A stretch of DNA of 64,000 bases from Leptospira sp. (GCA_034439575.1 JAWXAQ010000027.1:1-64000), one strand, 5' to 3'; positions 23,445 through 64,000 are shown, counted from the stretch's first letter. Numbers and translations: made by a program. The notes: generated by a model from the sequence alone, not told the origin.

Positions 23445-23667
23445 TTTCTTAATTTTTCTCAGTCTTTCTCTCTCGCCAATTCGTACAAGCATATTTTATA
23501 AGACATAATATTACTCAAATTTACGTTCATTTCGTGAACGGAATACTTGACGTAGTTTCTGAGTATTGGAAATTTGAATCCGAATGGGACTCATGGGGCG
23601 AAGCTATGCCAAATACAGTCCCCACTTTTACAAAAAATCCGCTTATTACCGAATTTAGGATCTCCCT

Positions 23668-38441: not shown

Positions 38442-38455
38442 CTTAAGGCGATAAA

Positions 38456-40482: not shown

Positions 40483-40501
40483 AACAATATTATTTGATTG
40501 T

Positions 40502-41671: not shown

Positions 41672-41685
41672 TCTAATATAATAAA

Positions 41686-47096: not shown

Positions 47097-48092
47097 ATGA
47101 AAGTATTAGTTACTGGAGCTGATGGATTTATTGGCTCACATTTGGTAGAAACGTTGGTAAAGGAAGGATACGAAGTTAAAGCTTTTGTGCTTTATAATTC
47201 TTTAAATTCTTGGGGTTGGCTTGATCAATCGCCAAAAGAAATTATAGATAATGTAGAAATATTTACTGGAGACATTCGTGATCCATATGGCGTAAAGGAA
47301 GCGATGAAAGGATGTGATGCAGTTTTACATTTGGCTGCCTTAATTGCTATACCTTATTCTTATCATTCACCTGAGACCTACGTTGATACAAATATAAAAG
47401 GTACTCTCAATGTGATGCAGGCCGCCAGAGAACTAGGGGTTAAAAAAGTTATACATACCTCTACCAGCGAAGTTTACGGTACTGCAAAATTTGTTCCTAT
47501 TTCTGAAGATCACCCATTACAAGGTCAATCTCCTTATTCAGCAACCAAGATTGGGGCAGATCAACTAGCAATGTCATTTTATTTATCGTTTCAGACTCCA
47601 GTAGCAATCGTTAGACCATTTAACACCTATGGACCTCGGCAATCAGCGCGAGCTGTTATCCCTACGATTATTACTCAGCTGGCATCAAATAAAAAGAAAT
47701 TAAAGTTAGGTGCTATTCATCCTACTAGAGATTTTAATTTTGTGAAAGATACCGTTTCCGGTTTCATAGCTGCATTAAAGTCTGATTTATCTATTGGCGA
47801 AATTATAAATATTGGAAGCGGATTTGAAATCACAATTAAAGATTTAGCAGAATTGATTTCAAATATAATGGGTAAAAACTTTGAATTTGAGACAGATAGT
47901 ATTCGAATGCGCCCAGAAAAAAGCGAAGTAGAGCGATTATTGGCTGATAATTCAAAAGCAAAAAAGATACTAAATTGGAATCCTGAATATGGATCATTGG
48001 AAGGTCTAAGAATAGGATTATCCGAAACAATTGAGTGGTTTACTAATTCTGAAAATTTAAAAAAATATAAAGTAGATATTTATAATATATGA
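47097..48092 (+). CDS. legB: NAD-dependent NDP-GlcNAc 4,6-dehydratase
   Basis: GADGFIGSHL, YNSLNSWGWLD, LAALIAIPYSY, QSPYSATK, RPFNTYGPRQSARA. Confidence 0.88.
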   Translation: MKVLVTGADGFIGSHLVETLVKEGYEVKAFVLYNSLNSWGWLDQSPKEIIDNVEIFTGDIRDPYGVKEAMKGCDAVLHLAALIAIPYSYHSPETYVDTNIKGTLNVMQAARELGVKKVIHTSTSEVYGTAKFVPISEDHPLQGQSPYSATKIGADQLAMSFYLSFQTPVAIVRPFNTYGPRQSARAVIPTIITQLASNKKKLKLGAIHPTRDFNFVKDTVSGFIAALKSDLSIGEIINIGSGFEITIKDLAELISNIMGKNFEFETDSIRMRPEKSEVERLLADNSKAKKILNWNPEYGSLEGLRIGLSETIEWFTNSENLKKYKVDIYNI

Positions 48093-49258
48093 ATTTAGAT
48101 TCAATCAGACTTGCCATAAAGTCATCATGGGACATTCAAAGTGAAAAATTTGTTTCTCTTCATGAGCCTCAATTTCAAGGGAATGATTGGAATTATGTAA
48201 AAGATTGTCTCGATAGTGGTTGGGTTTCGTCTGTCGGTAAGTATGTCGATTTATTTGAAGAAAAGATTAAGGAATTCACTGGGTCGAAATATGCTATTGC
48301 CACTGTGAATGGAACGGCCGCCCTTCACATAACGTTAAGATTAAGCGACGTTAAGCAAGATGATGAAGTCCTGTTACCTGCGCTTACTTTTGTAGCAACT
48401 GCCAACGCCGTATCTTATTGTCATGCCACGCCTCATTTTATAGATGTGGAAAAGGAAACCTTAGGCATCGATCCCAGCAAATTAGAATTATATTTGCGTG
48501 AAATAGTAATAAAGAAAAATGAATATTCATATAATAAGAATACAAATAAAAGAATTAGTGCATTAATTGGTATGCATACTTTTGGTCATTCTTTTGATAT
48601 TGATCGAGTAAAGGATATTTGTGATTATTATAATATAGCATTTATAGAGGATGCTGCAGAATCATTAGGATCCTTTTATAAAGGAAAACATACAGGCACT
48701 TATTCAAAGCTTGCGGCTATTAGCTTTAATGGAAATAAGATAGTAACAACTGGAGGCGGAGGTGCAATATTAACCCAAGATGAAAATATCGCAAAATTGG
48801 CAAAGCATATAACAACAACGGCCAAAGTCCCTCACAAATGGGAATTTTTTCATGATATGATCGGATACAATTATAGAATGCCAAATTTAAATGCTGCACT
48901 TGGTTGTGCACAATTGGAAGTATTACCAAAATATTTGAAATTTAAACGTAAATTGGCAAATAATTATATAATAAATTTTAAAAATGTTGAAGGTGTTAAA
49001 ATATTCTCGGAACCTAAGTTTTCTATTTCTAATTATTGGTTAAATGTTATGTTGGTGGAAAATTCCACTTTCGAGAAACGTGATATGGTTCTGGAAAATC
49101 TAAACCATAACAATATTATGGCAAGGCCAGCATGGAATTTGCTAAATAATTTACCTATGTTTTCCCATTCCCCTAAGATGGATCTATCTGAATCAATCGA
49201 AATAGAAAAATCACTTATAAATATTCCTAGCAGTTCCAATTTAATCATTAACGAATGA
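48089..49258 (+). CDS. legC: LegC-family PLP aminotransferase
   Basis: LHEP, WVSSVG, EDAAESLG, SFNGNKIVTTGGGG, NYRMPNLNAALG. Confidence 0.88.
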   Translation: MNLDSIRLAIKSSWDIQSEKFVSLHEPQFQGNDWNYVKDCLDSGWVSSVGKYVDLFEEKIKEFTGSKYAIATVNGTAALHITLRLSDVKQDDEVLLPALTFVATANAVSYCHATPHFIDVEKETLGIDPSKLELYLREIVIKKNEYSYNKNTNKRISALIGMHTFGHSFDIDRVKDICDYYNIAFIEDAAESLGSFYKGKHTGTYSKLAAISFNGNKIVTTGGGGAILTQDENIAKLAKHITTTAKVPHKWEFFHDMIGYNYRMPNLNAALGCAQLEVLPKYLKFKRKLANNYIINFKNVEGVKIFSEPKFSISNYWLNVMLVENSTFEKRDMVLENLNHNNIMARPAWNLLNNLPMFSHSPKMDLSESIEIEKSLINIPSSSNLIINE

Positions 49259-49902
49259 ATGAAATTTTTTTAATTGGATCTGGTGGTCATGCAAAAGTTG
49301 TTTTGGATGCGATGATTGCTGCAAATTGTAAACCTCACGGTATCATAGACAATGATCCAGATAAATTAGAAAGTTTACTTTTAGGAGTTACGGTAATAGG
49401 GGATGATAACATTTTTTTTAATCGTTTTTCGCCTAATGATGCAAAGGTCGTTGTTGGAATCGGTTCAGTAAGGTCTACCAAAATTAGAAACCAGGTGTAT
49501 CAACTATATAACCAAAGAGGTTACAAATTTTTAAACGTAATTCATCCTTATGCTAAAATATCGCAATATTGCCAGTTACAAAATTCCATTCAAATATTGG
49601 CTAATGTTACAGTTAATGCGGGTTCGGTGATAGGCAATAATTCTATTTTAAATACTGGTTCTACAATTGATCATGATTGTGTGATTGGAAATTCAGTTCA
49701 TATTGCTCCAGGAGTTACTTTGAGCGGAAATGTTAGAATCGGAGATGACACACATATTGGTACTGGTGCCATAGTGATTCAAAATATTTCAATTGGAAAA
49801 AACTGTTTAATTGGTGCAGGTTCTGTTGTTTTAAACAACGTTCCTGATAATTCTGTAGTCGTCGGTTGTCCAGCAAGAGTAATAAAGAAAAATGAAATTT
49901 GA
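49255..49902 (+). CDS. NeuD/PglD-family sugar acetyltransferase
   Basis: GSGGHAKVV, IHP, hexapeptide repeats with DHDC, GCPAR. Confidence 0.9.
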   Translation: MNEIFLIGSGGHAKVVLDAMIAANCKPHGIIDNDPDKLESLLLGVTVIGDDNIFFNRFSPNDAKVVVGIGSVRSTKIRNQVYQLYNQRGYKFLNVIHPYAKISQYCQLQNSIQILANVTVNAGSVIGNNSILNTGSTIDHDCVIGNSVHIAPGVTLSGNVRIGDDTHIGTGAIVIQNISIGKNCLIGAGSVVLNNVPDNSVVVGCPARVIKKNEI

Positions 49903-50902
49903 TAAAGTATTAATTATTGCCGAAGCAGGCGTAAATCATAATGGAGATTTAAATTTAGCAAAATCTATGATAGATATTGCCGCTGAAGCTGGTGCTGATG
50001 TCGTAAAATTTCAAACCTTTAAGGCAGAAAATATAGTAACAAAATCTGCGTTAAAGGCAGAATATCAAATTAAGAATACTGGTTCAGATGACTCCCAATT
50101 TGCAATGCTTAAAAACTTAGAGATTTCATTTGAAGATCATAAAGTTTTAATTGAACATTGTAAACTTAGAAATATAAAATTTTTATCCACAGGTTTTGAT
50201 TTAGAAAGTTTGAATTTTTTAAATACTTTAAACTTTCCTTTCTTTAAGATTCCATCGGGTGAAATTACAAATTATCCGTATCTTGAAAAAATTTCTGAAT
50301 TCAACAAACCGGTTATTCTTTCTACAGGAATGTCGAATATGGAAGAAATTCATTCCGCCATAGAAGTGCTTATATCAAAGGGACTTAAAAAAGCAGACCT
50401 AGTTGTTCTTCATTGCAACACCGATTATCCTACTCCTTTTTCCGATGTAAACTTGCGAGCTATGAAAACGATTGCAGAAAAGTTTTCAGTCAAAATTGGA
50501 TATTCAGATCATACTCCAGGTATAGAAATATCATTAGCTGCTGTGGCGCTTGGAGCCGTTGTCATCGAAAAACATTTTACATTAGATAAGGAAATGACTG
50601 GTCCAGATCATAAAGCTTCCTTAGATCCAAATGAATTGAAGTCATTGGTAAAAGGCATACGGAATATTGAATCTGCCTTAGGTAGCTCGATAAAACAGGC
50701 TTCTCAATCAGAAATGAAAAATATTCCTATTGTTCGTAAAAGTATAGTGGCAGCTAAAAATATAAAAAAGGGTGAAAAGTTTACCGAAACCAACCTAACA
50801 ACAAAGAGACCTGCATCCGGAATTAATCCTATGATGTGGCCTGAAGTGATCGGACAGATCTCACTTCGGGATTATGAAGTTGATGATTTTATCGAATTAT
50901 AA
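49892..50902 (+). CDS. neuB: Nonulosonic acid synthase (NeuB/LegI-type)
   Basis: IIAEAGVNHNG, VKFQTF, KIPSGE, GYSDHT, IEKHFTLD, C-terminal SAF domain. Confidence 0.93.
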   Translation: MKFDKVLIIAEAGVNHNGDLNLAKSMIDIAAEAGADVVKFQTFKAENIVTKSALKAEYQIKNTGSDDSQFAMLKNLEISFEDHKVLIEHCKLRNIKFLSTGFDLESLNFLNTLNFPFFKIPSGEITNYPYLEKISEFNKPVILSTGMSNMEEIHSAIEVLISKGLKKADLVVLHCNTDYPTPFSDVNLRAMKTIAEKFSVKIGYSDHTPGIEISLAAVALGAVVIEKHFTLDKEMTGPDHKASLDPNELKSLVKGIRNIESALGSSIKQASQSEMKNIPIVRKSIVAAKNIKKGEKFTETNLTTKRPASGINPMMWPEVIGQISLRDYEVDDFIEL

Positions 50903-50922: not shown

Positions 50923-51996
50923 ATGAATCAAAAAGATATCCTTCGTTCCATCATAAGTCCTTCGGATACAATCAAGCAAGCAATCAAGCAGCTTAATGAA
51001 AATAGTTTGCAAATTCTGTTAGTTGCAGATTCAGATCATAGACTTCTTGGAACTGTCACTGATGGTGATATTCGAAGAGAATTGGAAAAAAATTGGGATC
51101 TAAATCAATCAGTAGAATTGATAATGAATCAATCACCGAGATTTTTATATGAGTCTGAACGTGAAAGTGCTCATGATATAATGATCAAAGAAGGAATTCG
51201 ACATATTCCCATTTTGAATTTTTATAAAAAAATTCTAGATTTAGTTTTGTTTGTAAATCTTGAAAATGTCAAGAAACAAGAGTTATTCTCACAGAAGAAG
51301 GAAAAAGTCTTTATACTTGCTGGTGGTAAAGGTACAAGACTCAAACCATTTACAAATATCATTCCAAAACCATTGATACCCTTAGGTGAAACTCCCATCG
51401 TTGAAATAATTATGGATCGATTTCAATACTTTGGATTCAATCAGTTTATATTATCAATCAATTTCAAAGCGGAAATGATTCGATCATATTTTGTCGATAA
51501 TCCGAAAAACTTCCAAATTGATTATGTAAAAGAAGAGGAATTTTTAGGAACAGCAGGCTCTCTTTATTTTTTAAAAAATAATATAAAGGAAACTTTGATT
51601 ATATCAAATTGTGATGTTATATTAGATATCAATTTTGATAACTTTTTTAAATACCACCAAGAATGTGAAAATGATATAACAGTTGTTGGGGTGATTCGTC
51701 ATGTTAAAATTCCATACGGTGTTATGGAAATTAGTGATCGGATACTCCAATCCATTAAAGAAAAACCTGAGTACGATATTATAGTTAATGCAGGTATTTA
51801 TGCTGTCGAGTATGGCATTCTTGATCTTATAGAAGATAAAAAATATTTAGATATGCCTGATTTATTGCAAATGGCAAAAGCTAAAGGCAAAAAAGTCGGA
51901 GTATATCTCGTATCTGCAGAAATGATTGATGTTGGCCATTGGGATGAATACAAACTTGCTGAAGAAAAGGCAAGGCAGTTAGGTTTTATTCTATGA
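50923..51996 (+). CDS. CBS-domain nucleotidyltransferase (PtmE/LegX-like)
   Basis: GTVTDGDIRR CBS pair; LAGGKGTRL, PKPL, LGTAGSL. Confidence 0.88.
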   Translation: MNQKDILRSIISPSDTIKQAIKQLNENSLQILLVADSDHRLLGTVTDGDIRRELEKNWDLNQSVELIMNQSPRFLYESERESAHDIMIKEGIRHIPILNFYKKILDLVLFVNLENVKKQELFSQKKEKVFILAGGKGTRLKPFTNIIPKPLIPLGETPIVEIIMDRFQYFGFNQFILSINFKAEMIRSYFVDNPKNFQIDYVKEEEFLGTAGSLYFLKNNIKETLIISNCDVILDINFDNFFKYHQECENDITVVGVIRHVKIPYGVMEISDRILQSIKEKPEYDIIVNAGIYAVEYGILDLIEDKKYLDMPDLLQMAKAKGKKVGVYLVSAEMIDVGHWDEYKLAEEKARQLGFIL

Positions 51997-52967
51997 GTAA
52001 AGTGTTGTTAGTCGGTTCTGGTGGAATGGCGGTCGAGTATTTAAAAGTACTAAAAAGTCTAAATCAGGAAGTCGTTGTCATTGGAAAAAGCATTGAATCC
52101 ATAAAAAAGTTAGGTGAACAATTTGATTATCCTGCTTTTTCAGGTGGCCTGGAAAATTTTAATTTTAATTCTATTGATAATATAGACTACGCAATCAATG
52201 CCGTTTCCGTTGAAGCCCTTTTTTCAACGACTCAGGTTTTGATTGATCAAGGCATCAAAAATATATTAATAGAAAAACCAGGTGCGATGGCAAAATCCGA
52301 AATTGAGATTATGTTAGAGCGTTCTCTTCAAAAGGGCATAAATGTAAGCATAGGTTATAATCGTAGATTTTATCAATCAGTGCAGAAAGCAAAAGAAATG
52401 ATCCAAGAGAATGGTGAGAAAATAAAATCATTTCACTTTGAATTTACAGAATGGGCTCATGTGATTAAAAGTTATAATTTTAGCCAAGATTTATTACAAA
52501 ATTGGTTTATAGCAAATTCAAGTCACTTAATCGACTTAGCTTTTTATCTAGGTGGCAAACCCAAAATAATTCATTCCTTAGTAGGTGGTGGTTTAGATTG
52601 GCATACATCAGGTTCAATATATGTAGGATCTGGAATTTCTGAAATAGGTGCTTTTTTTTCTTACCATTCAAATTGGACTGCGCCAGGAAGATGGTCTCTG
52701 GATGTTCTAACAGATAGTACTCGTTATATCTTCAAACCATTAGAAAAGTTACAAATTCAAAAGAATGGATCAGTGCAAATCGAAGAAGTAAACCAAGATA
52801 ATAATGTTGATATTGATTTTAAGCCAGGAATAAGGGATCAAGTTATTGCTTTCCTTGGTCAAGATAATTCTGTGTTATGCAGACTTGTAGAACAAGCGAG
52901 GCTTTGGGAAATTTATGATAAAATTAAATATGGATCTATCAAAATAGAAAACAGTGAAAACAAATGA
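51993..52967 (+). CDS. Gfo/Idh/MocA-family oxidoreductase
   Basis: GSGGMA, IEKPG, GYNRRF, SHLIDL. Confidence 0.8.
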   Translation: MSKVLLVGSGGMAVEYLKVLKSLNQEVVVIGKSIESIKKLGEQFDYPAFSGGLENFNFNSIDNIDYAINAVSVEALFSTTQVLIDQGIKNILIEKPGAMAKSEIEIMLERSLQKGINVSIGYNRRFYQSVQKAKEMIQENGEKIKSFHFEFTEWAHVIKSYNFSQDLLQNWFIANSSHLIDLAFYLGGKPKIIHSLVGGGLDWHTSGSIYVGSGISEIGAFFSYHSNWTAPGRWSLDVLTDSTRYIFKPLEKLQIQKNGSVQIEEVNQDNNVDIDFKPGIRDQVIAFLGQDNSVLCRLVEQARLWEIYDKIKYGSIKIENSENK

Positions 52968-54196
52968 GTAAAATGATTACAAACTGTAGAATTTGTAAGA
53001 GCAATGAGTTAACACCCATTGCCAATCTAGGTGTCCAAGCCTTCACGGGAATATTCCCTAAATCAAAAGAAGAAGAAGTTCCGAGTGGTAGCCTCGAACT
53101 CGTAAAATGTATGCATTGTGGACTTGTGCAATTGAGACATTCTTTTGATCTGAATTTGTTATATGGTCAGAATTATGGATATAGATCTGGATTGAACCAA
53201 TCAATGATTGCTCATTTACAAGCCACTGTAGAAAAAATTACTGAAATCGTGAACTTATCTAACGGTGATTTGGTTATCGATATAGGAAGTAATGACAGTA
53301 CACTTTTGCAAGCCTACCCCAAAAATCTTGATCTTGTAGGTATCGATCCCACTGGAGTTAAATTTAAAAGTTATTATCCAGACTATATTAGATTGGTTCC
53401 TGACTTTTTCTCGGCAGCTAACGCAAAGTTAGCGATCGGAAATAAAAAAGCAAAGATCATTACTTCTATTGCTATGTTTTACGATTTAGAAGATCCAACA
53501 CAGTTTATGGAAGATATTAGGGATGTTTTGGCAGATGATGGAATTTGGTACTTTGAACAAAGTTATATTCTTTCTATGTTAGATACAAATTCTTACGATA
53601 CCATATGCCATGAACATTTGGAATACTATGCATTAAAGCAGATCAAATGGATGACTGATAAAGTCGGTCTCCGAATTATTTCTGTTACATTAAATAAGGT
53701 AAATGGTGGGAGTTTTTCTATCATGGTTTGCAAAAAAGATGCAAATTATCCGGATAATTCTTCAGTTGTAAACAAAATGTTAGAACAAGAAGAAAAGCGG
53801 GGATTGGATAACCTCCAGATATATTTTGAATTCAACAATAGAATACAAGAATATAGAGATAAGCTAATCCAGTTCTTTAAAACCCAAAAAGATGCAGGAA
53901 AATTAGTAATCGGGTATGGAGCCTCCACAAAAGGAAATGTTATATTGCAATATTGTAATATAACAAGTGATTTGATGCCATACATAGCAGAAGTGAATCA
54001 GGAAAAATTTGGTCGTTTTACGCCTGGAACCAAAATCCCGATCATTTCAGAAGCAGAAGCAAAAAAACTTAATCCGGACTTTCTTTTTGTTTTACCATGG
54101 CATTTTAAAGAAAGTATAATCATCAGGGAACGCGAATACGTGAAAGCAGGCGGGCACCTGGCATTCCCGCTTCCTTATCTAGAGGTTATTTATTAG
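52964..54196 (+). CDS. NDP-hexose C-methyltransferase-like protein
   Basis: CRIC...CMHC zinc motif, DIGSNDS, YDTICHEH, GYGASTKGN, PGTKIPI, LPWHF. Confidence 0.87.
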   Translation: MSKMITNCRICKSNELTPIANLGVQAFTGIFPKSKEEEVPSGSLELVKCMHCGLVQLRHSFDLNLLYGQNYGYRSGLNQSMIAHLQATVEKITEIVNLSNGDLVIDIGSNDSTLLQAYPKNLDLVGIDPTGVKFKSYYPDYIRLVPDFFSAANAKLAIGNKKAKIITSIAMFYDLEDPTQFMEDIRDVLADDGIWYFEQSYILSMLDTNSYDTICHEHLEYYALKQIKWMTDKVGLRIISVTLNKVNGGSFSIMVCKKDANYPDNSSVVNKMLEQEEKRGLDNLQIYFEFNNRIQEYRDKLIQFFKTQKDAGKLVIGYGASTKGNVILQYCNITSDLMPYIAEVNQEKFGRFTPGTKIPIISEAEAKKLNPDFLFVLPWHFKESIIIREREYVKAGGHLAFPLPYLEVIY

Positions 54197-54201
54197 ATCT
54201 T

Positions 54202-55188
54202 ATGAAAGATAAGTATCAAACTATTTTTAGAGAATATTATTCCAAACAAGATTTTGTAGATCGTTTTAAGAAAAATAAATCTAATGCTATAGATGTATGT
54301 ATTCCAATTGTTCATACGAATGAACTTTGGGAAGCTAATCTAATTTCGATTTACCGCGAAATCCCAGTCAATAGGCTTTTGATAAGCGATGGTGGTTGTA
54401 TCGATGATTCAGTTTCAATAGTTAAAAAATTTCCTAGAGTAACCATCCTCGATCATAAGGAGTATAAGACTTTAGGTTATTGTATTAGAAAACTGATTGA
54501 AAACGTAGAGACAGAGTGGTTTGCATATCTTCATTCAGATGTATATTTACCGCCTAATTGGTTTGATACTATGATTGCTCACAAAGGAGAATTTGAATGG
54601 TTTGGTTGTCCTATGCGCCATACCGTCCTTGCAGATTATCCTGGCGAAAATGAAATTCGCCCCTATGCTGGAACGCAAATTGGTAAAAAAGAAGCTTTTT
54701 TACCAAACCTACATACGATTGATGATGATTATGTTTATAGGCAAGAAGATTTTGTTTTTGAAAATGTCGTTTCAAAATCAGGTTTCCGAAATGGCAAAAT
54801 AGAAGATACATTCCATTACCATCAAACAATGTTTAGGCCAAGCAAATGGTTTGATCTAAAAATTAAGAGTGTAAGTTTTGATTTAGTTAAAAAACCCGAA
54901 GAAATAGTTCGAGCCGCAGATATGCAAGTTAGGGGAACGATAAAATACTTAGCACCAAATAAATTTTTAGCATTTTGGATCATACCGAGTTTTGTGGATT
55001 TGATTGAAATGAAACAATTGAATTGGAAAGAATTTCGCCTTTGGGTAAAGGAAACAAATCCTGCATGGTTGCCCTATCTAAGTTATTGGAAAATACGATT
55101 GGTTCATCTCTGGCTCAGTCCGAGTTTAAGAACTAGGTTAAAAAATAGTTTAGCCAAGATATTTTTTAGACAAAAAGTTGTGAATTAG
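54202..55188 (+). CDS. GT2/GT-A-like glycosyltransferase
   Basis: IDVCIP, DGGCIDDS, WFAYLHSDV. Confidence 0.7.
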   Translation: MKDKYQTIFREYYSKQDFVDRFKKNKSNAIDVCIPIVHTNELWEANLISIYREIPVNRLLISDGGCIDDSVSIVKKFPRVTILDHKEYKTLGYCIRKLIENVETEWFAYLHSDVYLPPNWFDTMIAHKGEFEWFGCPMRHTVLADYPGENEIRPYAGTQIGKKEAFLPNLHTIDDDYVYRQEDFVFENVVSKSGFRNGKIEDTFHYHQTMFRPSKWFDLKIKSVSFDLVKKPEEIVRAADMQVRGTIKYLAPNKFLAFWIIPSFVDLIEMKQLNWKEFRLWVKETNPAWLPYLSYWKIRLVHLWLSPSLRTRLKNSLAKIFFRQKVVN

Positions 55189-55219
55189 TATTGGTAATTT
55201 TTGTAAGGACTGAATTGAA

Positions 55220-56632
55220 ATGAGATTGCATGCGACTATGATCCTCCCGTTTTTAAATGCAATTTTAACTTTGTATTTTATAAAAAGCGAAGATTTTGAA
55301 AGTATTGAATTTCTTTATTATATTATAATAATTTTATTTGTTTATTCAATTTTTTCAGTCATTTTCAATTTTTTCAGAAATAAACTCGAAATTTTTTCGA
55401 ATATTGATCTGAGTTTATTTACGAGTTTATTAATATTCTCTTTTTTTGAAATATTATTCATTTTAACTCCGTCTTTATTTCCTTCATCTATTCGAAATTA
55501 TGCTGGAGAATCAATTGCATCCAAAAACAATCAAGGTGTTATAGAATATTTCGATCATACTCCCTACGCCAAGTTTAAACCAAATTCAGTGATTCAATCT
55601 GCAGGTGATTATGGTCCGCCTGAAAAATTTGCATACAGTTGGATGACCGATAGATTTGGATTTAAAAATTTGGAGACAATTGCGAATCAAGAAAATATTT
55701 CCGTTCTTGCAGTAGGCGATAGTTTTACCGAAGGAATGGGGGTCAAAGTAGAAAATACATATCCGAGTATCCTAACAGAGCTTGGAATCCCAACATACAA
55801 TTTGGGTGTACAAGGTAGTGCTCCTATACAATGGATGGGATATCTTGAAATGATTGGTAAAAACTTTAAACCAAAATTGGTCATAGTCGGATATTTACCA
55901 ACTGTATATGAAAGGGAAGGGGTTTTTTTAAATCGGGATGATAAAAACCGAGCTCTTCCTTCTGCCTTAGGTAGAATTTCAAAATTAAATCGAAAACATG
56001 AAATTAGAAATCAAAAGAAATTTTTAATTTCTGGATTAACATTATTTGCAGTATTTAACTTAATTCCCGAAATAAAAGAATTCCTACAACCCATCATCAA
56101 TAAATTTGACACAGATTTATCGGAAGACCCTAGATACATCGATACGAGTAAACTTGTAAAGTCCGATAAAATCAAAATTTCTAAAATGGCTAGGTACATT
56201 AAGGAATTTAAACGAGTGGAACAAAAAGGACTAACGAAAGAAGAGATCGAAGTTAGTCCCGAATGGAAAAGTTTTGAAAAACAAATATTAGAAATTCAAA
56301 AAAAGACAAAAGCAATAGGATCGAATTTTTTACTTCTGACTTTACCACATAGAGATTTAGTATATTATGAAATAGCAACTGGCCTTAATCCTCCCAGTTA
56401 TAATTTTTCAAGTATCGAGATCGAATTGATAAAAGAATTTTCAAAAAGAAATAATATTCTAACATTTGATGTGACTCCTATCTTCGTAAAATACTCCAAT
56501 GGTCTCAGAGAAGATACACCATTAGATGAATATCCTTATTTGGAAATTGATGGTCATTTAAATGCTAGAGGGAATCGGTTGCTTGCCGAATCAATAAAAA
56601 CATTTATTGTTAATTCGAAACTATTGAGATAA
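55220..56632 (+). CDS. Membrane-anchored SGNH/GDSL protein (acetyltransferase or esterase)
   Basis: N-terminal TM helices, GDSFTEG, NLGV, DGHLNARGN. Confidence 0.8.
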   Translation: MRLHATMILPFLNAILTLYFIKSEDFESIEFLYYIIIILFVYSIFSVIFNFFRNKLEIFSNIDLSLFTSLLIFSFFEILFILTPSLFPSSIRNYAGESIASKNNQGVIEYFDHTPYAKFKPNSVIQSAGDYGPPEKFAYSWMTDRFGFKNLETIANQENISVLAVGDSFTEGMGVKVENTYPSILTELGIPTYNLGVQGSAPIQWMGYLEMIGKNFKPKLVIVGYLPTVYEREGVFLNRDDKNRALPSALGRISKLNRKHEIRNQKKFLISGLTLFAVFNLIPEIKEFLQPIINKFDTDLSEDPRYIDTSKLVKSDKIKISKMARYIKEFKRVEQKGLTKEEIEVSPEWKSFEKQILEIQKKTKAIGSNFLLLTLPHRDLVYYEIATGLNPPSYNFSSIEIELIKEFSKRNNILTFDVTPIFVKYSNGLREDTPLDEYPYLEIDGHLNARGNRLLAESIKTFIVNSKLLR

Positions 56633-56665
56633 TTTTTCTTCGAATCAAAAATCAAATTCCTAAAA

Positions 56666-57931
56666 ATGAAATATGCTGATATTGTATTAAATTCCTGGAG
56701 AAGTTTTGACCAATTTCTTGCAAAAATAAAAAATTCAGAGAAAGAATTTCTATACTTTGTAAGAAATTTGTATGTAGCTAACATTGAGTTAGAAAGTAGG
56801 TCAAAATGGATAGATGGACCCCTCCATTTTTTGCATATTTGTTTTTCTATTTTTAATTTATTTCTTAGGGAGCCATCATTATCGGAACATCATAATATAC
56901 TTATACTTGAAATTAATCATAACCAGGATAAATATTTAAGTGAAAGAACTGGAATTCCATTAGGGAAAATTAATTGGAAATTAAAGAGAAATTTTACCAT
57001 TATAGGTGATCTTAAAATATTTTATGAATGGATCAAATATTGTTATCAATTAGTATTTAAATCTGGTTTACAGTTTTTTCCATGTTATAAAACTTTTGGC
57101 TTTCTTTTAAATGGTTTAATCGTATATTCTAAAATAAATTTAGAAGGTATAGAAAAGATTATTACACAAAGAGATCGTTATCCAGAAGAAATCGGAATTT
57201 TAAAAAAAGCTAAAGAAGCAAAGATAACTACTGCTAAGTTTGATAATTTTCTATCCTTAGGTTCGGTTAATCATAACAGCATATACTGTGACTATTATTT
57301 GTATCCGAATCAAATCAATGCCAATCATTTCCGAAAGTATCCCCAAAATGAAACTGTCAAATTTATTGAGGTAGGATTTCCTTTTTGGGATGATATGGCA
57401 AAGTACCATTGGAATCCGAAAAAAGATGTAAAGATCATTACTTTTTTTAGTCAATACGGTTTTGATTTAGGCATATTTGGAGAGAAGGGACCTTTATACT
57501 ATATTGAAGAATTAATAAGTGTTATGGATGATAGTTTTATTCTTTTTATCAAAAAACATCCATTAGAGAAGGAATCCTCCTTCAAAAATCTTATTTCTGA
57601 ACGTATTAAAATTTTAAAACCAGGTGAATTTGAGAATGGAGAACTGTTTTCGATGTCTACATTTGTTTTTTCACTCGCTTCCCAAGCTTTGATCGAATCC
57701 AAACATATCAACCCACAATCCGCATATATAAATTATTTTCCTGAAGAAAGTTTGGATTGGGACTATCGTCTGTTAAATGATAAATTGGATTTGCTTCAAA
57801 GCAGAAAAGAATTGGAATATTTTCTATATGAAAAGAAAGATTTTGTCACTAGTCAAGATTTCATTTCCTCATTTAACCCGACTTATCCACATTCAATGGA
57901 AAAAATCAGTAAAGTGATTCGAGAAATTTAA
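56666..57931 (+). CDS. Hypothetical GT-B-like protein, candidate nonulosonate transferase
   Basis: VGFP, FFSQ, IKKHPLE, SQALIES; immediately upstream of neuC. Confidence 0.5.
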   Translation: MKYADIVLNSWRSFDQFLAKIKNSEKEFLYFVRNLYVANIELESRSKWIDGPLHFLHICFSIFNLFLREPSLSEHHNILILEINHNQDKYLSERTGIPLGKINWKLKRNFTIIGDLKIFYEWIKYCYQLVFKSGLQFFPCYKTFGFLLNGLIVYSKINLEGIEKIITQRDRYPEEIGILKKAKEAKITTAKFDNFLSLGSVNHNSIYCDYYLYPNQINANHFRKYPQNETVKFIEVGFPFWDDMAKYHWNPKKDVKIITFFSQYGFDLGIFGEKGPLYYIEELISVMDDSFILFIKKHPLEKESSFKNLISERIKILKPGEFENGELFSMSTFVFSLASQALIESKHINPQSAYINYFPEESLDWDYRLLNDKLDLLQSRKELEYFLYEKKDFVTSQDFISSFNPTYPHSMEKISKVIREI

Positions 57932-57950: not shown

Positions 57951-59099
57951 ATGAGAATTTGTGTTATCACTGGAAGTCGGGCAGAATATGGACTTTTATT
58001 CCCATTGATGAAAGCTCTGAGCGTGGATTCATTTTTTGAGTTACAAATTATTGTGACAGGAATGCATTTATCTCATGAATTTGGAAATACATACAAAGAA
58101 ATTGAAAAAGACGGATTTTATATTAATAAAAAAATAGAAATATTACTCTCTTCTGATACTTCAGTCGGAATCGCAAAAACAATGGGCCTTGCAATGATTA
58201 GTGCGGCCGAATGTCTCGATGATTTAAAACCAGATTTAGTTGTTATCTTAGGTGATCGCTATGAAAGCTTTGCCATAGCAAGTGTTTGTGTAGTTTCACG
58301 AATTCCCATAGCTCATCTCCATGGTGGTGAGGCGACAGAAGGTTTAATTGATGATCCTTTTCGTCATTCAATCACAAAGATGTCTCATTTGCATTTTTGT
58401 GCTTTGGATGAATATCGAAATCGCATCATACAGTTAGGTGAGAACCCAGAGACCGTTTTTACTGTGGGCGCATTGGGATTGGACAATATTTTAAATTTCA
58501 AATTGTTATCCAAGGAAGAAATTGAAAAAAAATATGATTTCAAATTTCTTGAAAAAAATCTATTAGTTACGTTTCATCCAGTTACTCTCGAAAATTCGAC
58601 AGCCAGTTTTCAATTCACTCAGCTTTTAAATGCGATTGATAAGTTACAAGATACCTTCGTAATTTTTACAAAACCAAATTCAGATACAGACGGCAGAGTC
58701 ATCATATCTCTAATAGATGATTATGTAAAAGAAAACCCAAGGAAATCTATCGGTTTTCAATCAATGGGCCAATTAAATTATTTAAGTACTTTGCAATTCG
58801 TTGATATGGCAGTTGGAAATTCATCTAGCGGTTTATTGGAAGTTCCATCTTTTAGAAAAGGTACTGTTAATATTGGGGATAGACAAAATGGTAGATTTAA
58901 ACCAAAAACTGTTTTGGATTGTGCACCATCAGAAGAAGAAATTTTTAATTCCATCCAAAAAGTGTATTCGAATGAATTTCAAACTATGTTATCTACCTTC
59001 GTAAGTCCATTAGGTGATGGCAAAGCTGCAGCGAAAATTGTAAATTTCATTAAGAATTCAAAAATTAATTTAAAGAAAAAATTTCACAATATTTTATGA
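57951..59099 (+). CDS. neuC: Hydrolysing NDP-sugar 2-epimerase (NeuC/LegG-type)
   Basis: TGSRAEYG, TGMHLS, LGDRYE, HLHGGE, FHPVT, GNSSSG, IGDRQ. Confidence 0.93.
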   Translation: MRICVITGSRAEYGLLFPLMKALSVDSFFELQIIVTGMHLSHEFGNTYKEIEKDGFYINKKIEILLSSDTSVGIAKTMGLAMISAAECLDDLKPDLVVILGDRYESFAIASVCVVSRIPIAHLHGGEATEGLIDDPFRHSITKMSHLHFCALDEYRNRIIQLGENPETVFTVGALGLDNILNFKLLSKEEIEKKYDFKFLEKNLLVTFHPVTLENSTASFQFTQLLNAIDKLQDTFVIFTKPNSDTDGRVIISLIDDYVKENPRKSIGFQSMGQLNYLSTLQFVDMAVGNSSSGLLEVPSFRKGTVNIGDRQNGRFKPKTVLDCAPSEEEIFNSIQKVYSNEFQTMLSTFVSPLGDGKAAAKIVNFIKNSKINLKKKFHNIL

Positions 59100-59974
59100 G
59101 AATACTATTTATTGGATCAGTCCAATTCTCCGAATCTGCTTTACTCAAATTGATACAATTAAAGGCAGAAATAGTCGGAATCATTTCTAAAGAAAAGGCA
59201 GGTATCAATAGCGATTATGTCGATTTATCTAAGTTAGCTGGCGAAATTCCATTTATGTATACAGAAAATATAAATGATGAGAGGACAGTTTCTTGGGTGA
59301 AAGGTATCAAACCAGATATAATTTTTTGTTTTGGTTGGTCATCACTGATTAAAAATGAAATATTGAAAATACCTCGTATGGGAATAGTAGGGTTTCATCC
59401 AGCCGAATTACCTTTCAATAGAGGAAGACATCCCATCATTTGGGCATTGGCTCTCGGATTAGAAAATACAGCTTCTACTTTTTTCTTCATGGACGAAGGT
59501 GCTGATAGTGGTGATATTCTAAGTCAAAAGAAGATACTTATTGATTATAAAGACGATGCGGAATCGCTTTATAAAAAAATTACAGAGACTGCTTTAAATC
59601 AAATCAATGACTTTTTACCAAAATTACAAACAAACACATATAATAAAATATCACAAGATCATCGTTTAGCAAATACTTGGCGGAAAAGAGGTAAAATAGA
59701 TGGAAAAATTGATTTTCGGATGTCATCCTATTCAATTTATAATTTAGTAAGAGCACTCACCAAACCGTACGTTGGTGCTCACATAGAATATTTAGGAAAA
59801 GAATTTAAAATTTGGAAAGTTTCTGAAATTTCATTCCATCAAAAGAATGTGGAACCTGGTAAAATCATCGAAATTTTGGATGGAAAAGTGATTGTTAAAA
59901 CTGGGGACACAGCAATTCAAATTGAAGACCATCAAATTCTTGAAACTTTAGAAATAGGTAATTATTTATTATGA
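59096..59974 (+). CDS. Fmt-like sugar N-formyltransferase
   Basis: FGWS, GFHPAELPFNRGRHP, DEGADSGDI, LVRALTKPYVGA C-terminal domain. Confidence 0.85.
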   Translation: MRILFIGSVQFSESALLKLIQLKAEIVGIISKEKAGINSDYVDLSKLAGEIPFMYTENINDERTVSWVKGIKPDIIFCFGWSSLIKNEILKIPRMGIVGFHPAELPFNRGRHPIIWALALGLENTASTFFFMDEGADSGDILSQKKILIDYKDDAESLYKKITETALNQINDFLPKLQTNTYNKISQDHRLANTWRKRGKIDGKIDFRMSSYSIYNLVRALTKPYVGAHIEYLGKEFKIWKVSEISFHQKNVEPGKIIEILDGKVIVKTGDTAIQIEDHQILETLEIGNYLL

Positions 59975-60648
59975 CTTCACTTCTCGTTGTATCTCCCCAC
60001 CCAGATGATGAAACTTTAGGTGCTGGTGGTCTTATTTTAAAAACGAAACAGATGGGGTTTCCAACTTACTGGCTAAACATTACAAACATGAGTCTTAGTT
60101 ATGGTTGGGAGCAAGATAGAATCGATCAAAGAAAGACCGAAATTGAAAAAGTAATATCTAGTTACCAAGTAGATAAGTATCTAAGTTTAGATCTAGAACC
60201 TGTCGGTCTTGATAAATATCCTCGATCCGAAATAGTTTTAAAAATTTCCACTGTGTTTAATCAACTTAAACCTGAAATGATTGTCATTCCTTGGAAGTCA
60301 GATCCGCATTCGGATCATAATGTTGTCTATGAGTCTGTCATCTCAGCATCTAAGAGTTTTCGTTATCCTTTTATTAAAAAAATTCTCGCAATGGAGATTC
60401 TTTCCGAGACAAATTTTAGTGACTTTGACGATTTTTCACCTAACTACTTTGTGGACATAACAGGTTTCTTAGATAAAAAAATTCAAATCATGAATATATA
60501 TAAATCTGAAATGGGAAATCATCCATTTCCAAGAAGCGATGAAGCTCTCAGGTCATTGGCTGTGCTTCGGGGTAGCCAAGCGGGTGTTGTACATGCTGAA
60601 GCCTTTAGAGTCATAAAGATTATAGATAAACAAAATCAAAAAATATGA
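59971..60648 (+). CDS. PIG-L/LmbE-family de-N-acetylase
   Basis: SPHPDDETLG, DPHSDH, VDIT, AEAF. Confidence 0.9.
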   Translation: MTSLLVVSPHPDDETLGAGGLILKTKQMGFPTYWLNITNMSLSYGWEQDRIDQRKTEIEKVISSYQVDKYLSLDLEPVGLDKYPRSEIVLKISTVFNQLKPEMIVIPWKSDPHSDHNVVYESVISASKSFRYPFIKKILAMEILSETNFSDFDDFSPNYFVDITGFLDKKIQIMNIYKSEMGNHPFPRSDEALRSLAVLRGSQAGVVHAEAFRVIKIIDKQNQKI

Positions 60649-60664
60649 ATAGAACAATAAATAG

Positions 60665-61522
60665 ATGATACATAGAGTTATTGCAAGACTTGATATTAAA
60701 GGACCAAATTTAGTTAAGGGCATACATTTAGAAGGGCTAAGAGTATTAGGAAGTCCTGAACAATTTGCAAAGTATTATTATGATTCTGGAGCCGATGAGC
60801 TCTTGTATATGGATGTAGTAGCCAGTCTCTACAACAGAAATAGTTTACGTGAAATCATTACGCGAACTGCCAAAGAGATATTTATTCCGCTTACAGTTGG
60901 TGGCGGTCTTCGGAGTCTCGAAGATATAAATGATGTTTTGCGAGCAGGTGCGGATAAAATTTGTATTAACACAGCTGCTATCAAAAATCCAGAAATAATC
61001 AAACAAGCATCAAGAAAATTTGGGTCTTCGACTATTGTCGTTGCGATAGAAGCCATTCAACAACCTGACGGGAGTTATTTGGCTTACACTGATAATGGAA
61101 GAGAGCATACAGGTGTCGATGTATTTGAATGGGCCAGGAAAGTAGAAGCTCTTGGCGCTGGAGAAATTTTAATTACTTCGGTCGACAAGGAAGGAACAGG
61201 AAGTGGATTTGAAATCAACTTAATAAATGAAGTTTGTAATCAAGTTTCTATTCCTGTCATTGCTCATGGTGGTTGTGGAAAAAAAGAGCATTTATTAAAT
61301 TTGTTTCAAGAAACAAAGGCTTCTGCAGCATCTATATCCAGTATATTGCATTATTCTTATATAGATAAACATAGCAATACATTTGTAGGTGGAGAGGAAG
61401 GGAACATCGATTTTTTGAAAAGCGGAAGATTATTTAAAAATATCGATAAAACCTACATCAGCGAAATAAAACAATATTTGAACCAAAATAATATCGAATG
61501 TCGGATTGATTATGATGAGTAA
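60665..61522 (+). CDS. HisF-like protein (WbuZ-type, LPS-associated)
   Basis: [38 protein letters not shown]. Confidence 0.88.
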
Positions 61523-62192
61523 TAATACTTCTAATGTAGTCATTGTTGATTACGATATGGGAAATTTATTTAGTGTGCAGCACGCATGTAAGAAAGTCGG
61601 GCTTGAACATACCGTATCTTCAGACCCGGAAAAAATTTCCAATGCCGAGGCGATTATATTACCGGGTGTAGGTGCATTTGGTGACGCTATGGTTCATCTT
61701 AAAAAATTGGACTTGATATCACCTATCCTTGATTTTGTGGCAACAGGTCGACCATTGATGGGAATTTGTCTTGGTATGCAGCTACTTTTTAGTGAGAGTG
61801 AAGAATTTGGTTCCACCAAAGGTTTGGATATTATTTCAGGAAATGTATTAAAATTTCCCAAAATATCACCTACAGGAAAAACATTAGCAATTCCTCAAAT
61901 TAATTGGAATTCCATACAAAAACCTAAATCAAGAAAAGACTCATGGAATGATTCTCCTTTAAGAGAGAATTCCGAGAAAGACTTTATGTATTTTATACAT
62001 TCATTCTATGTGAGTCCGCAAAATGTTAGTGATGTGATCGCTTTTACCGACTACGAAGGATTTGAATATTGTTCAGCGATACAAAGGAATAATGTATTCG
62101 CAGTTCAATTTCATCCAGAAAAGAGCGGAGAAAAAGGTATACGAATTTATAGTTCATTTAGAGATATGATTCTTAAAAGGAAGAAGGCATAA
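61506..62192 (+). CDS. HisH-like glutaminase subunit (WbuY-type); start probably ATG 61512 or 61515
   Basis: DYDMGN, LPGVGAF, GICLGMQ, QFHPEKSG. Confidence 0.9.
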   Translation: MIMMSNNTSNVVIVDYDMGNLFSVQHACKKVGLEHTVSSDPEKISNAEAIILPGVGAFGDAMVHLKKLDLISPILDFVATGRPLMGICLGMQLLFSESEEFGSTKGLDIISGNVLKFPKISPTGKTLAIPQINWNSIQKPKSRKDSWNDSPLRENSEKDFMYFIHSFYVSPQNVSDVIAFTDYEGFEYCSAIQRNNVFAVQFHPEKSGEKGIRIYSSFRDMILKRKKA

Positions 62193-62194
62193 AT

Positions 62195-63358
62195 ATGGAG
62201 ATAGTACAAAAAAACACTCAGGAATTGTATAAATTACCAAGTGAAGTTAAATACTGTAAAAGATGCACGATTTCAAACCAAAGACCCAGGATCACATTTG
62301 ATGCTGAAGGTGTTTGTTCCGCTTGCAATTATGCAGATTACAAAAATACACAAGTTGATTGGGCAAAAAGAGAAGCTGAATTAAAGATTTTGTTAGATAA
62401 ATACAGACGCGACGACGGAAGTTATGACGTTGTTGTTCCTTCTAGCGGAGGCAAAGACAGCGCCCACTTAGCACATGAGTTGAAACACAAATATGGAATG
62501 AATCCCCTGACCGTCACTTGGTCGCCCCATTTGTATACTGACATAGGGTTCAAAAATCACCAGAATATGATTCATGTTGGTGATTTAGCGAATGTTAATG
62601 GTGCACCAGCAGGAGCTGCTCATAGAAAACTTACCAAGTTATCATTTGAAATATTAGGTGATCCTTTCCAACCATTTATTTTTGGTCAGGCGAACTTCCC
62701 TTTGCAGATAGCTGTTAGGTATAAGATTCCACTCATAATGTATGGAGAAAATGGTGAAGTTGAGTATGGTGGAGACATGAAGAATGCCTTTGTCCCAACA
62801 CGTGACTATAAATCAGATCACAAAAAACATTATTTTTCAAATTTGGGACCAGAGGATTATATTAACTACGGAATTTCAGCTAAAGAAATCGTTCCATATA
62901 TGGCACCGTCTAACGACGAACTTGATGCGATCGGAACATCAATTCATTTTTATGGATATTATAAGAAATGGATTCCCCAAGAAAATTACTACTATTGTGT
63001 AGAGAATACTGGTTTTTCTGCAAATCCAGTTCGCAGTGAGGGAACTTATTCCAAATATGCTTCATTAGATGATAGACTCGATGGATTCCATTACTATTTG
63101 AGTTTCATTAAATTTGGAATCGGAAGAGCAACTTCAGATTCCGCGCATGAAATTCGTGATAAACATTTAACAAGGGAAGAGGGCGTAACTCTTGTTAGAA
63201 AGTATGATGGAGAGTTCCCAGTAAAGTATTTCAAAGAATTTTTAGAATACTGCGATATCACTGAAGAATACTTCTGGAAGGTGATCGATAGTTGGCGTTC
63301 TCCTCACCTTTGGTCCAAGGTCAATGGTGAGTGGAAACTGGTTAAGCAGGTAGAATAA
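62195..63358 (+). CDS. N-acetyl sugar amidotransferase (WbuX/PseA-like)
   Basis: CKRC...RPRI...CSAC, SGGKDS PP-loop, YGEN, KFGIGRAT. Confidence 0.9.
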   Translation: MEIVQKNTQELYKLPSEVKYCKRCTISNQRPRITFDAEGVCSACNYADYKNTQVDWAKREAELKILLDKYRRDDGSYDVVVPSSGGKDSAHLAHELKHKYGMNPLTVTWSPHLYTDIGFKNHQNMIHVGDLANVNGAPAGAAHRKLTKLSFEILGDPFQPFIFGQANFPLQIAVRYKIPLIMYGENGEVEYGGDMKNAFVPTRDYKSDHKKHYFSNLGPEDYINYGISAKEIVPYMAPSNDELDAIGTSIHFYGYYKKWIPQENYYYCVENTGFSANPVRSEGTYSKYASLDDRLDGFHYYLSFIKFGIGRATSDSAHEIRDKHLTREEGVTLVRKYDGEFPVKYFKEFLEYCDITEEYFWKVIDSWRSPHLWSKVNGEWKLVKQVE

Positions 63359-63361
63359 ACT

Positions 63362-64000
63362 TTGAAAGTTTTAGTCGTAGGATTTGGATCCATTGGCTCG
63401 CGACACACACAATCTCTTTTAGGTTCTAATCTTGTTAAAAATATAACAGTTTTTGATCCATCAGATGAAAGTTATTCGCAAGGATTGAAACGGATAGCAG
63501 CGACTGAACTGCAGGTGGAAAGAATTTCCACTTTGGATGCAGTTAAAGAGCATTGTCCTGATATTGTTATACTATCTTCGACTGCCAAGGATAGGTTTTC
63601 ACAATTTGAATTTTTTGCTCAAATGGGTGTTAAACGATTTTTAGTTGAGAAAATTGTATTTCAGTCAATGGAACAATTTCATAATGCAATTTCCTTAATT
63701 CAGAAACATGAAATTGAATCATTTTGTAATTTTGCGAACAGGTACTATCCAAATTACATCTTGCTAAAGGATTTAATTCGCAATCAAAGATTGGATATGC
63801 GCATTACTTGCGGTGATATAGGACTTGCCACAAGTGCCATTCATTATATGGATTTATTTGAATATCTCTCTGATAGTCCTATTCATGATAGTATTGGGGA
63901 TCTCAAAAGTTCATTAAAAGAGAACAAACGTGGAAAAGAGTATAAAGAATACAATGGTTTGATTTTATTCCTTACAGAAAAAGGAGATAAACTCTCTCTT
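63362..64000 (+). CDS. Gfo/Idh/MocA-family oxidoreductase (runs off the window end)
   Basis: Not in the track. TTG 63362 gives MKVLVVGFGSIGSRHTQSLL...LVEKIVFQS...IHYMDLF. Confidence 0.8.
   Translation, partial: MKVLVVGFGSIGSRHTQSLLGSNLVKNITVFDPSDESYSQGLKRIAATELQVERISTLDAVKEHCPDIVILSSTAKDRFSQFEFFAQMGVKRFLVEKIVFQSMEQFHNAISLIQKHEIESFCNFANRYYPNYILLKDLIRNQRLDMRITCGDIGLATSAIHYMDLFEYLSDSPIHDSIGDLKSSLKENKRGKEYKEYNGLILFLTEKGDKLSL

Follow-up and report, generated by a model that had tools for sequence, protein, structure and literature searches.

Gene content and linkage of the legionaminic acid module

The window, a 64,000-nucleotide stretch of DNA from Leptospira sp. (GCA_034439575.1, JAWXAQ010000027.1), comprises contig positions 1-64000 within a 4.1-megabase genome assembly; the organism is represented in microbial-mat metagenomes. 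We describe here a run of six open reading frames (ORFs) on its + strand at 57951..63358, for which an earlier note had proposed N-acyl editing of a legionaminic acid (Leg)-type sugar, a general idea that holds up. The first three ORFs encode NeuC/LegG, a hydrolysing 2-epimerase (57951..59099; TIGR03568, 472.7 bits, cut-off 235.9), a 292-residue formyltransferase-like (Fmt-like) protein (59096..59974; PF00551, 74.6 bits; PF02911, 70 bits), and a 225-residue PIG-L/LmbE-type de-N-acetylase (59971..60648; PF02585, 74.8 bits, cut-off 28.2). The other three form an amidino triad consisting of WbuZ, a HisF-like ammonia-channel subunit (60665..61522; PF00977, 211 bits), WbuY, a HisH-like glutaminase (61506..62192; TIGR01855, 195.4 bits, cut-off 105.4), and WbuX, an N-acetyl sugar amidotransferase (NASAT) of the WbuX/PtmG/LpNASAT type (62195..63358; TIGR03573, 343.6 bits, cut-off 203.2). 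WbuZ scores 269.4 bits against TIGR03572, under the cut-off of 299.7, although WbuZ is still its nearest family. As the note had stated, the genes overlap or are closely spaced (successive gaps of -4, -4, +16, -17, and +2 bases), and the names neuC, Fmt-like, PIG-L, HisF-like, HisH-like, and amidotransferase correspond to family matches far beyond chance.

This region is the middle of one large Leg module, which extends from legB at 47097 to neuA, about 3.2 kilobases (kb) beyond the end of the window, carries two independent add-ons, and lies inside an ABC-transporter-type surface-polysaccharide locus. Upstream, on the + strand, are legB, encoding an NAD-dependent 4,6-dehydratase (47097..48092; TIGR04180, 527.9 bits, cut-off 475), legC, an aminotransferase (48089..49258; TIGR04181, 527.1 bits, cut-off 420), a neuD/legH-type acetyltransferase with PglD_N and hexapeptide repeats (49255..49902; TIGR03570, 223.2 bits, cut-off 160.8), probably responsible for acetylation of 4-N (the future N7), neuB/legI, the nonulosonate synthase (49892..50902; TIGR03569, 508 bits, cut-off 399.65), and a PtmE-like gene combining CBS and sugar-1-phosphate nucleotidyltransferase domains (50923..51996; PF00483, PF00571). 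The earlier assignment of these genes is thus borne out, with scores above the curated cut-offs where such exist. The gene for the cytidine monophosphate (CMP)-nonulosonate synthetase, neuA, occupies contig positions 67202-67927 (PF02348, 89.7 bits); against the PseF equivalog it reaches only 139.3 bits (cut-off 205.7).

The linkage of the first three genes was followed in a set of 79 loci from species-representative genomes, retrieved with the Fmt-like protein as query and onto which the window's proteins were mapped. In 75 loci the sequence continues for 900 bases or more past Fmt; of these, 73 have pigL immediately 3' of it, one has pigL at another position, and one lacks the gene. Where adjacency could be judged, neuC abuts the pair in 57 of 65 loci, upstream of it in 52 and after pigL in five. 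In 52 Fmt-anchored loci the flanks reach 5 kb or more in both directions; these contain neuC in 49 cases, neuB in 48, legC and ptmE in 45 each, neuA in 42, neuD in 41, and legB in 38. The set spans 18 named phyla, with three further loci lacking a phylum name. Fused genes also occur: NeuC::PIG-L fusions form four clusters (P0245-P0248; 606-624 residues, one named from Helicobacter pametensis), and Fmt/PIG-L fusions form two (P0244 and P0249), which represent both domain orders and both carry a G-F-H-P motif, P0244 being a single sequence in which a read-through artefact is possible. All of the fusions found involve the Gly-type Fmt family described below. No PIG-L::FolD fusion was found among 15 longer PIG-L homologs, a null result of little weight. 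The window's PIG-L protein contains the motifs H10-P-D-D13 and H113-S-D-H116; we take H-P-D-D and H-x-D-H to be the metal-binding and catalytic motifs of the MshB/BshB literature, and both are present in 80 of 83 PIG-L homologs.

NeuC itself differs according to whether the pair is present. Between sets collected with different queries from different collections, and in which related loci share labels, NeuC from 66 pair-bearing clusters has a median identity of 54.5% to the window copy, and NeuC from 20 clusters lacking the pair one of 35.6%, as against 57.1/54.7% for NeuB, 33.2/34.4% for NeuD, 33.4/31.9% for PtmE, and 34.8/35.9% for NeuA; NeuC is the only core enzyme compared whose identity to the window copy depends on the pair. 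On the NeuC tree the with-pair label requires 8 changes (shuffle mean 18.5), and none of 500 shuffles was as low. Because of the shared labels and differing queries, this pattern may be due in part to block transfer and not to adaptation alone. NeuC, the Fmt-like protein, and PIG-L are a conserved unit, of which NeuC is also a core Leg enzyme.

The active site of the Fmt-like protein departs from that of known formyltransferases. In an alignment to the formyltransferase domain of ArnA, His101 and Asp137 are kept (their ArnA counterparts are H104 and D140) and Gly99 replaces the catalytic Asn; a G-[YF]-H-[PS] motif occupies this site in 120 of the 120 family members listed, and the score lies below the cut-offs of all curated formyltransferase equivalogs. 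Since the protein lacks one of the defining catalytic features, we file it as Fmt-fold and formyltransferase-like, not as a proven family member. The whole Fmt fold is kept; Atlas matches are confined to its own family and ArnA-like folds, and PseJ is a weak match in the PDB (E about 7e-9). Identity with the cell's Met-tRNA formyltransferase was considered and rejected, since a separate housekeeping fmt, which keeps the Asn (I-N-L-H), is found on another contig (243.4 bits).

In three loci (L030, 1713-2240; L066, 7122-7847; L124, 3805-4638), the slot between legC and neuB that normally belongs to neuD is filled by a second, Asn-bearing Fmt type (I-N-C-H-A-G-K-L-P). No neuD was seen in the available DNA of these loci, and L030 and L066 also carry the Gly-type Fmt/PIG-L pair. 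The position of this gene predicts 7-N-formyl Leg variants, and the co-occurrence of the two types suggests a division of labor in which the Asn type adds the acyl group to the LegC-derived amine (future N7), and the Gly type and PIG-L exchange the acetyl group derived from N-acetylglucosamine (GlcNAc; future N5). To our knowledge, all known PIG-L enzymes deacetylate the 2-N-acetyl of GlcNAc derivatives, which points in the same direction as an N5 target.

The amidino triad has a distribution of its own. WbuX matches the Legionella pneumophila NASAT 8WEX over its full length (352.9 bits); the other WbuX of the window (40502-41671) matches it at only 36.3 bits over 80 residues. The motifs described for the NASAT family in the 8WEX paper, a PP-loop SGGxDS and a zinc motif CxxC...[GN]xCxxC (PMC10607449, the available text of which reports no activity assay), are represented in WbuX by S84-G-G-K-D-S89 and by Cys21, Cys24, Cys41, and Cys44. 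With WbuX as query, 80 metagenome loci were collected, one of which (L094) was the window's own DNA and was excluded. Of the others, 20 extend 5 kb or more in both directions; nonulosonate genes are found in 19 of these, and neuA, neuB, and neuC together in 17, but Gly-type Fmt and PIG-L in only one (L108), the typical order being legB-legC-neuD-neuB-neuC-ptmE-neuA-wbuZ-wbuY-wbuX-gfo-gfo. The triad is therefore a Leg-dedicated module that usually occurs without the pair. The earlier note had regarded the six genes as one cassette and had called for a survey of its gene neighborhood; that survey upholds the linkage of NeuC, Fmt-like protein, and PIG-L, but not the cassette, given that neuC is a core gene traveling with the pair and WbuZYX is independent of them.

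Both modules occur together in 14 loci, namely the window, the syntenic locus L088, nine Fmt-anchored loci, and three WbuX-anchored loci. Within the genus of the window, Gly-type Fmt was found in 6 of the 24 other species searched, at 51-57% identity. In each of the six, the 20 kb retrieved also contains a WbuX homolog, which in five is distant (30-34% identity). WbuX proteins from loci with and without the pair are interspersed on the WbuX tree (10 changes, shuffle mean 19), and an alignment of 8 with-pair and 25 without-pair rows contains no column that separates them, the best reaching 4 of 8 versus 24 of 25. WbuX is thus not visibly adapted to the presence of the pair.

Proposed pathway and alternatives

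From the gene identities, linkage, fusions, active-site motifs, and modular distribution, we propose chemical steps, a donor, stages, and a regiochemistry for a Leg module with two independent add-ons, both aimed at N5; to this model as a whole we give an even chance. PIG-L would strip the GlcNAc-derived 2-N-acetyl (future N5 of Leg) at or beside the NeuC step and before NeuB, and the Asn-less Fmt-fold enzyme would put an acyl group back on the exposed amine, most likely formyl donated by N10-formyl-tetrahydrofolate. NeuB, then NeuA, would lead to CMP-Leg5Fo7Ac. Orthology and gene context predict that WbuXYZ converts the N-acyl amide of a CMP-nonulosonate to an amidine, with WbuY as glutaminase, WbuZ as ammonia channel, and WbuX as the ATP-dependent PP-loop enzyme; orthology to PtmG of L. 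pneumophila and Campylobacter jejuni suggests that the amide would be that on N5. With both add-ons aimed at the same nitrogen, the locus would produce 5-formamido Leg and 5-acetamidino Leg side by side or, should WbuX accept a formamide, 5-formimidoyl Leg.

Placement of both add-ons on N5 draws on two published systems, as far as the available texts describe them. The S-layer glycoprotein of Halorubrum sp. PV6 is decorated with 5-N-formyl-Leg (PMC6137143). In L. pneumophila, whose O-antigen is 5-acetamidino-7-acetamido Leg, ORF28 is a homolog of C. jejuni ptmG, the product of which converts CMP-Leg5Ac7Ac to CMP-Leg5Am7Ac (Petzold et al., PMC3766260). By analogy, the formyl and the amidino group would each be placed on N5, and the presence of the Asn-type Fmt in the neuD slot of three loci supports N5 as the target of the pair. 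As for the stage, the NeuC::PIG-L fusions and the NeuC subtype suggest that the pair acts before NeuB. In Candidatus Kuenenia stuttgartiensis, CMP-nonulosonates with one free and one formylated amine have been described, and the authors, who report a deacetylase and a formyltransferase in its Leg-type cluster, place the editing at the nucleotide-sugar level (bioRxiv 10.64898/2026.04.20.719630); the existence of formylated or free-amine CMP-sugars, as given in the available text, implies that editing precedes transfer.

Several points weigh against this model. The catalytic Asn present in every characterized N10-formyl-tetrahydrofolate transferase is missing from the Fmt-like family, so formyl transfer is not assured. 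The formyltransferases of Halorubrum and Kuenenia are likened to it by their published descriptions, and may or may not belong to the Gly-type family; moreover, the combination of a free amine and a formyl group in Kuenenia could also be explained by Fmt at N7 and PIG-L at N5. The NeuC subtype could stem from block transfer of neighboring genes, not substrate adaptation, and WbuX bears no sign of adaptation to a formamide. Finally, for this organism, which is represented only by metagenome assemblies, the formyl group, the amidino group, and the sugar structure are predictions from the genes.

For the sugar made where both add-ons are present, a glycoform mixture takes most of the probability that two alternatives leave. 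In one, N5 would be edited sequentially by deacetylation, formylation, and conversion of the formamide to a formamidine, yielding 5-formimidoylamino-7-acetamido Leg. The fusions and the NeuC subtype suggest that the pair acts ahead of NeuB; if so, and if WbuX works on the CMP-sugar, as PtmG does, it would encounter a 5-formamide. L030, which combines an Asn-type Fmt in the neuD slot with the Gly-type pair and WbuZYX, is consistent with this, as every amide there would be a formamide; however, it is a single 15.5-kb metagenome-assembled piece, beyond which a neuD may lie. Being smaller than an acetamide, a formamide would need no new pocket, in keeping with an unadapted WbuX, yet the lack of adaptation is compatible both with a mixture and with tolerance of a smaller substrate, and favors neither. 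The pair may also convert only part of the sugar, and no sugar of the proposed kind is known; the proposal is pure inference, and we regard it as unlikely.

The other alternative is that of the earlier note, which had assigned the two edits to different nitrogens of one Leg residue (Leg5Fo7Am or Leg5Am7Fo). Both modules do lie in one operon, with only 16 bases between pigL and wbuZ, their combination recurs in 14 loci, and an unadapted WbuX would be expected if an untouched N-acetyl were always its substrate. Regiospecificity can also differ among homologs, as in C. jejuni PseA, which makes a 7-acetamidino group on pseudaminic acid. On the other hand, WbuX is a full-length homolog of the enzyme of L. 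pneumophila, where, in the available text, the acetamidino group is on N5 (PMC3766260), and in L124, where the Asn-type Fmt replaces neuD, N5 would bear the only acetamide left for WbuX. The formyl group is likewise on N5 in Halorubrum, as reported in the text available (PMC6137143), and neither a 7-amidino nor a formyl-plus-amidino Leg was found in the literature searched. Edits on different nitrogens are therefore possible but not favored, and we rate them unlikely; the evidence is better matched by a mixture of glycoforms or by a 5-formimidoyl sugar.

A quite improbable reading is that the Asn-less Fmt-fold protein is not a formyltransferase, but transfers another group or serves as a helper of PIG-L, so that the product would be a free-amine or otherwise acylated Leg. 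It would account for the Gly at the catalytic-Asn site in all 120 members listed and for scores under all of the curated equivalog cut-offs. The retention of His101, Asp137, and the entire Fmt fold counts against it, as does the fact that we know of no acyl-tetrahydrofolate donor other than formyl. The published systems cut both ways in what their available texts report, with free-amine nonulosonates present in Kuenenia (bioRxiv 10.64898/2026.04.20.719630), and formylation in the only defined sugars from formyltransferase-bearing clusters, those of Halorubrum and Kuenenia. That WbuZYX merely adjoins the Leg genes and serves another polysaccharide sugar, such as a FucNAm- or ManNAc3NAmA-type hexosamine, would fit the other amino-sugar genes in the locus and the founding members, Escherichia coli O145 WbuX and WbpG, described in the available text as acting on hexosamines (PMC10607449), but is very improbable, as nonulosonate clusters house 19 of the 20 close WbuX relatives whose loci extend 5 kb or more in both directions, and a second triad in the window, beside a UDP-GlcNAc 3-dehydrogenase-like gene and an aminotransferase gene, is better suited to such a role.

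The wider polysaccharide locus

Between ptmE and neuC lie gfo1, encoding a GFO/IDH/MocA-type oxidoreductase (51993..52967, +; PF01408), and an insert of four genes (52964..57931, +) for, in order, a Methyltransf_13/14 methyltransferase, a glycosyltransferase (GT) 2-like protein, a 470-residue protein with three hydrophobic segments at its N-terminus, and a 421-residue GT-B/KpsS/TagF-like protein. Oxidoreductases of the gfo1 type are common partners of Leg clusters, and their homologs follow wbuX in many Leg loci, as a gfo2-gfo1 pair. In the window, wbuX is followed by gfo2 (63362..64000, +; PF01408), a second GFO/IDH/MocA-type gene that ends at contig position 64303, past the window. Beyond the window and before neuA are the rest of this gene, a Maf/MptE-like gene, and a B12-radical-S-adenosylmethionine (SAM) gene; a GNAT-like gene and genes for a polysaccharide deacetylase and a Wzx-like flippase also lie past the window. 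The surrounding polysaccharide locus, on the same strand, includes rmlACDB, a MarR-type exopolysaccharide (EPS) regulator, wzm/wzt, and an MBOAT and AlgX-like pair.

The usual order in Fmt-anchored loci is legB-legC-neuD-neuB-neuC-fmt-pigL-ptmE; the window differs in that ptmE, gfo1, and the four further genes are placed ahead of neuC. This rearranged order, including the insert, recurs in a genome of the same genus (G024, locus L088). Identities between L088 and the window are uneven, with 89% for WbuX and 92% for the B12-radical-SAM protein, but 57% for Fmt, 61% for NeuC, and 42% for the 470-residue protein, a mosaic that suggests recombination within the locus. Among named organisms, the nearest homologs belong to Leptospira ryugenii (WbuX 89%, Fmt 57% identity) and Leptospira sp. 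FAT2. In L. ryugenii, a cultured environmental relative, the two matches are four locus tags apart, and the named proteins (tags LPTSP4_03130 to 03170) are encoded with the spacing seen in the window.

The second, distant WbuX/HisH/HisF triad of the window is at 40502-43064, and its HisF exceeds the AglZ/HisF2 cut-off. Its neighbors (within 37314-43064) encode a UDP-GlcNAc 3-dehydrogenase-like oxidoreductase, a DegT-type aminotransferase, and a GT2; a second amidino group is probably present in the polysaccharide, on a diamino hexose. The Leg module also holds two methyltransferase-type genes, one in the insert (52964-54196; Methyltransf_13/14/23) and one for the B12-binding radical SAM protein (contig positions 65616-67205; L081 2617-4206), which could, by analogy with PtmH/ORF8 of Campylobacter/Legionella, N-methylate the amidine, or could methylate carbon.

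Two proteins are candidate CMP-nonulosonate transferases: the 421-residue insert protein (56666-57931), which has no Pfam match and whose Atlas neighbors are KpsS/LipB, TagF-like, and Leptospira O-antigen families (GT-B fold), and a 487-residue protein (45551-47014) with a weakly Epimerase_2-like C-terminal half. Just 3' of the triad, in this LPS (lipopolysaccharide)-like locus, a 296-residue MptE/Maf-like protein is encoded (contig positions 64537-65427; L081 1538-2428); we take this family to be flagellin nonulosonate transferases. An 828-residue protein (43054-45540) with about eight hydrophobic segments and a weak PMT_2 (GT-C) match is a possible polymerase, ligase, or membrane glycosyltransferase. 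Immediately ahead of the start of the polysaccharide locus lies a gene for PurU, a formyl-tetrahydrofolate deformylase (22599-23492, -), a placement that may be coincidence or a tie to the formyl donor pool.

Comparison with known systems

Each of the two modules is of a known kind, and the literature mentions the Fmt-like/PIG-L pair twice, in 2018 and in a 2026 preprint, in neither case with biochemistry. The appearance of a deacetylase and a formyltransferase in the latter makes the earlier note's description of an undescribed pathway too strong, though the term still applies to the biochemistry of the pair, the Asn-less site, and the two-module product. In our literature search we found no description of the tight three-gene unit with NeuC, of the Asn-to-Gly hallmark of the Fmt-like family, or of the Asn-type Fmt in the neuD slot, and no sugar or cluster in which the pair and the amidino triad come together; for formyl-plus-amidino Leg or Leg5Fo-type names, the search returned only the Halorubrum work and general lists.

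Nonulosonic acids cap bacterial surface glycans, and their N-acyl groups govern charge, antigenicity, and recognition by phages or antibodies. The NeuC/Fmt-like/PIG-L unit is found in Leg clusters of at least 18 phyla, and its transferase breaks the Asn-His-Asp rule of the formyltransferase family. It is tempting, if speculative and in our estimate unlikely, to see in it a pan-bacterial Leg branch that exchanges the N5 acyl group before the synthase and, where the triad is present, supplies the 5-formamide for conversion to 5-formimidoyl; if true, this formamidine would be an N-substituent never reported on a nonulosonic acid. In the window and the syntenic L088, the unit stands directly ahead of a Legionella-type amidotransferase, and loci with both the unit and the triad bear on two questions, the acceptance of formamides by such amidotransferases and the stage of each edit.

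Among characterized sugars, that of Halorubrum sp. PV6 comes from a Leg cluster that, like the window's, has a formyltransferase gene beside legG and neuD; the gene, between these two, is a prediction that was not assayed, and the system differs in being archaeal and in modifying an N-glycan, with no deacetylase or amidotransferase mentioned in the available text (PMC6137143). Kuenenia resembles the window in having deacetylase and formyltransferase genes embedded among leg genes, but its product has one free amine, and neither an acetyltransferase nor an amidotransferase is listed in the text available.

The C. jejuni Leg5Am7Ac pathway (LegB/C/H/G/I/F, PtmE, PtmG), for which the amidotransferase step is textbook knowledge, is matched by LegB, LegC, NeuD, NeuC, and NeuB above cut-offs and by the PtmE-like gene. 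The L. pneumophila LPS locus shares the full-length match of WbuX to 8WEX, with the same PP-loop and tetracysteine motif, and the HisH/HisF-like partners; the window's locus has an ABC-transporter (wzm/wzt) context, as we take the Legionella locus to have. Neither of these systems has a PIG-L/Fmt-like pair, and in the window the pair would remove the very N5-acetyl that PtmG-type enzymes amidate. The N-terminal domain of ArnA, WlaRD, and PseJ, the last of which formylates a nonulosonate precursor, have the same two-domain Fmt fold, and the His and Asp align with those of ArnA. Known sugar N-formyltransferases act on an amine made by a transaminase; unlike ArnA, WlaRD, and PseJ, the window's protein belongs to a family in which Gly replaces the catalytic Asn throughout, and it is paired with a deacetylase. 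Likewise, WbuXYZ of E. coli O145 and WbpG of Pseudomonas aeruginosa O5 belong to the same NASAT family, with the same glutaminase and channel partners, but act on hexosamines, whereas the ortholog group of the window's enzyme is tied to nonulosonate clusters.

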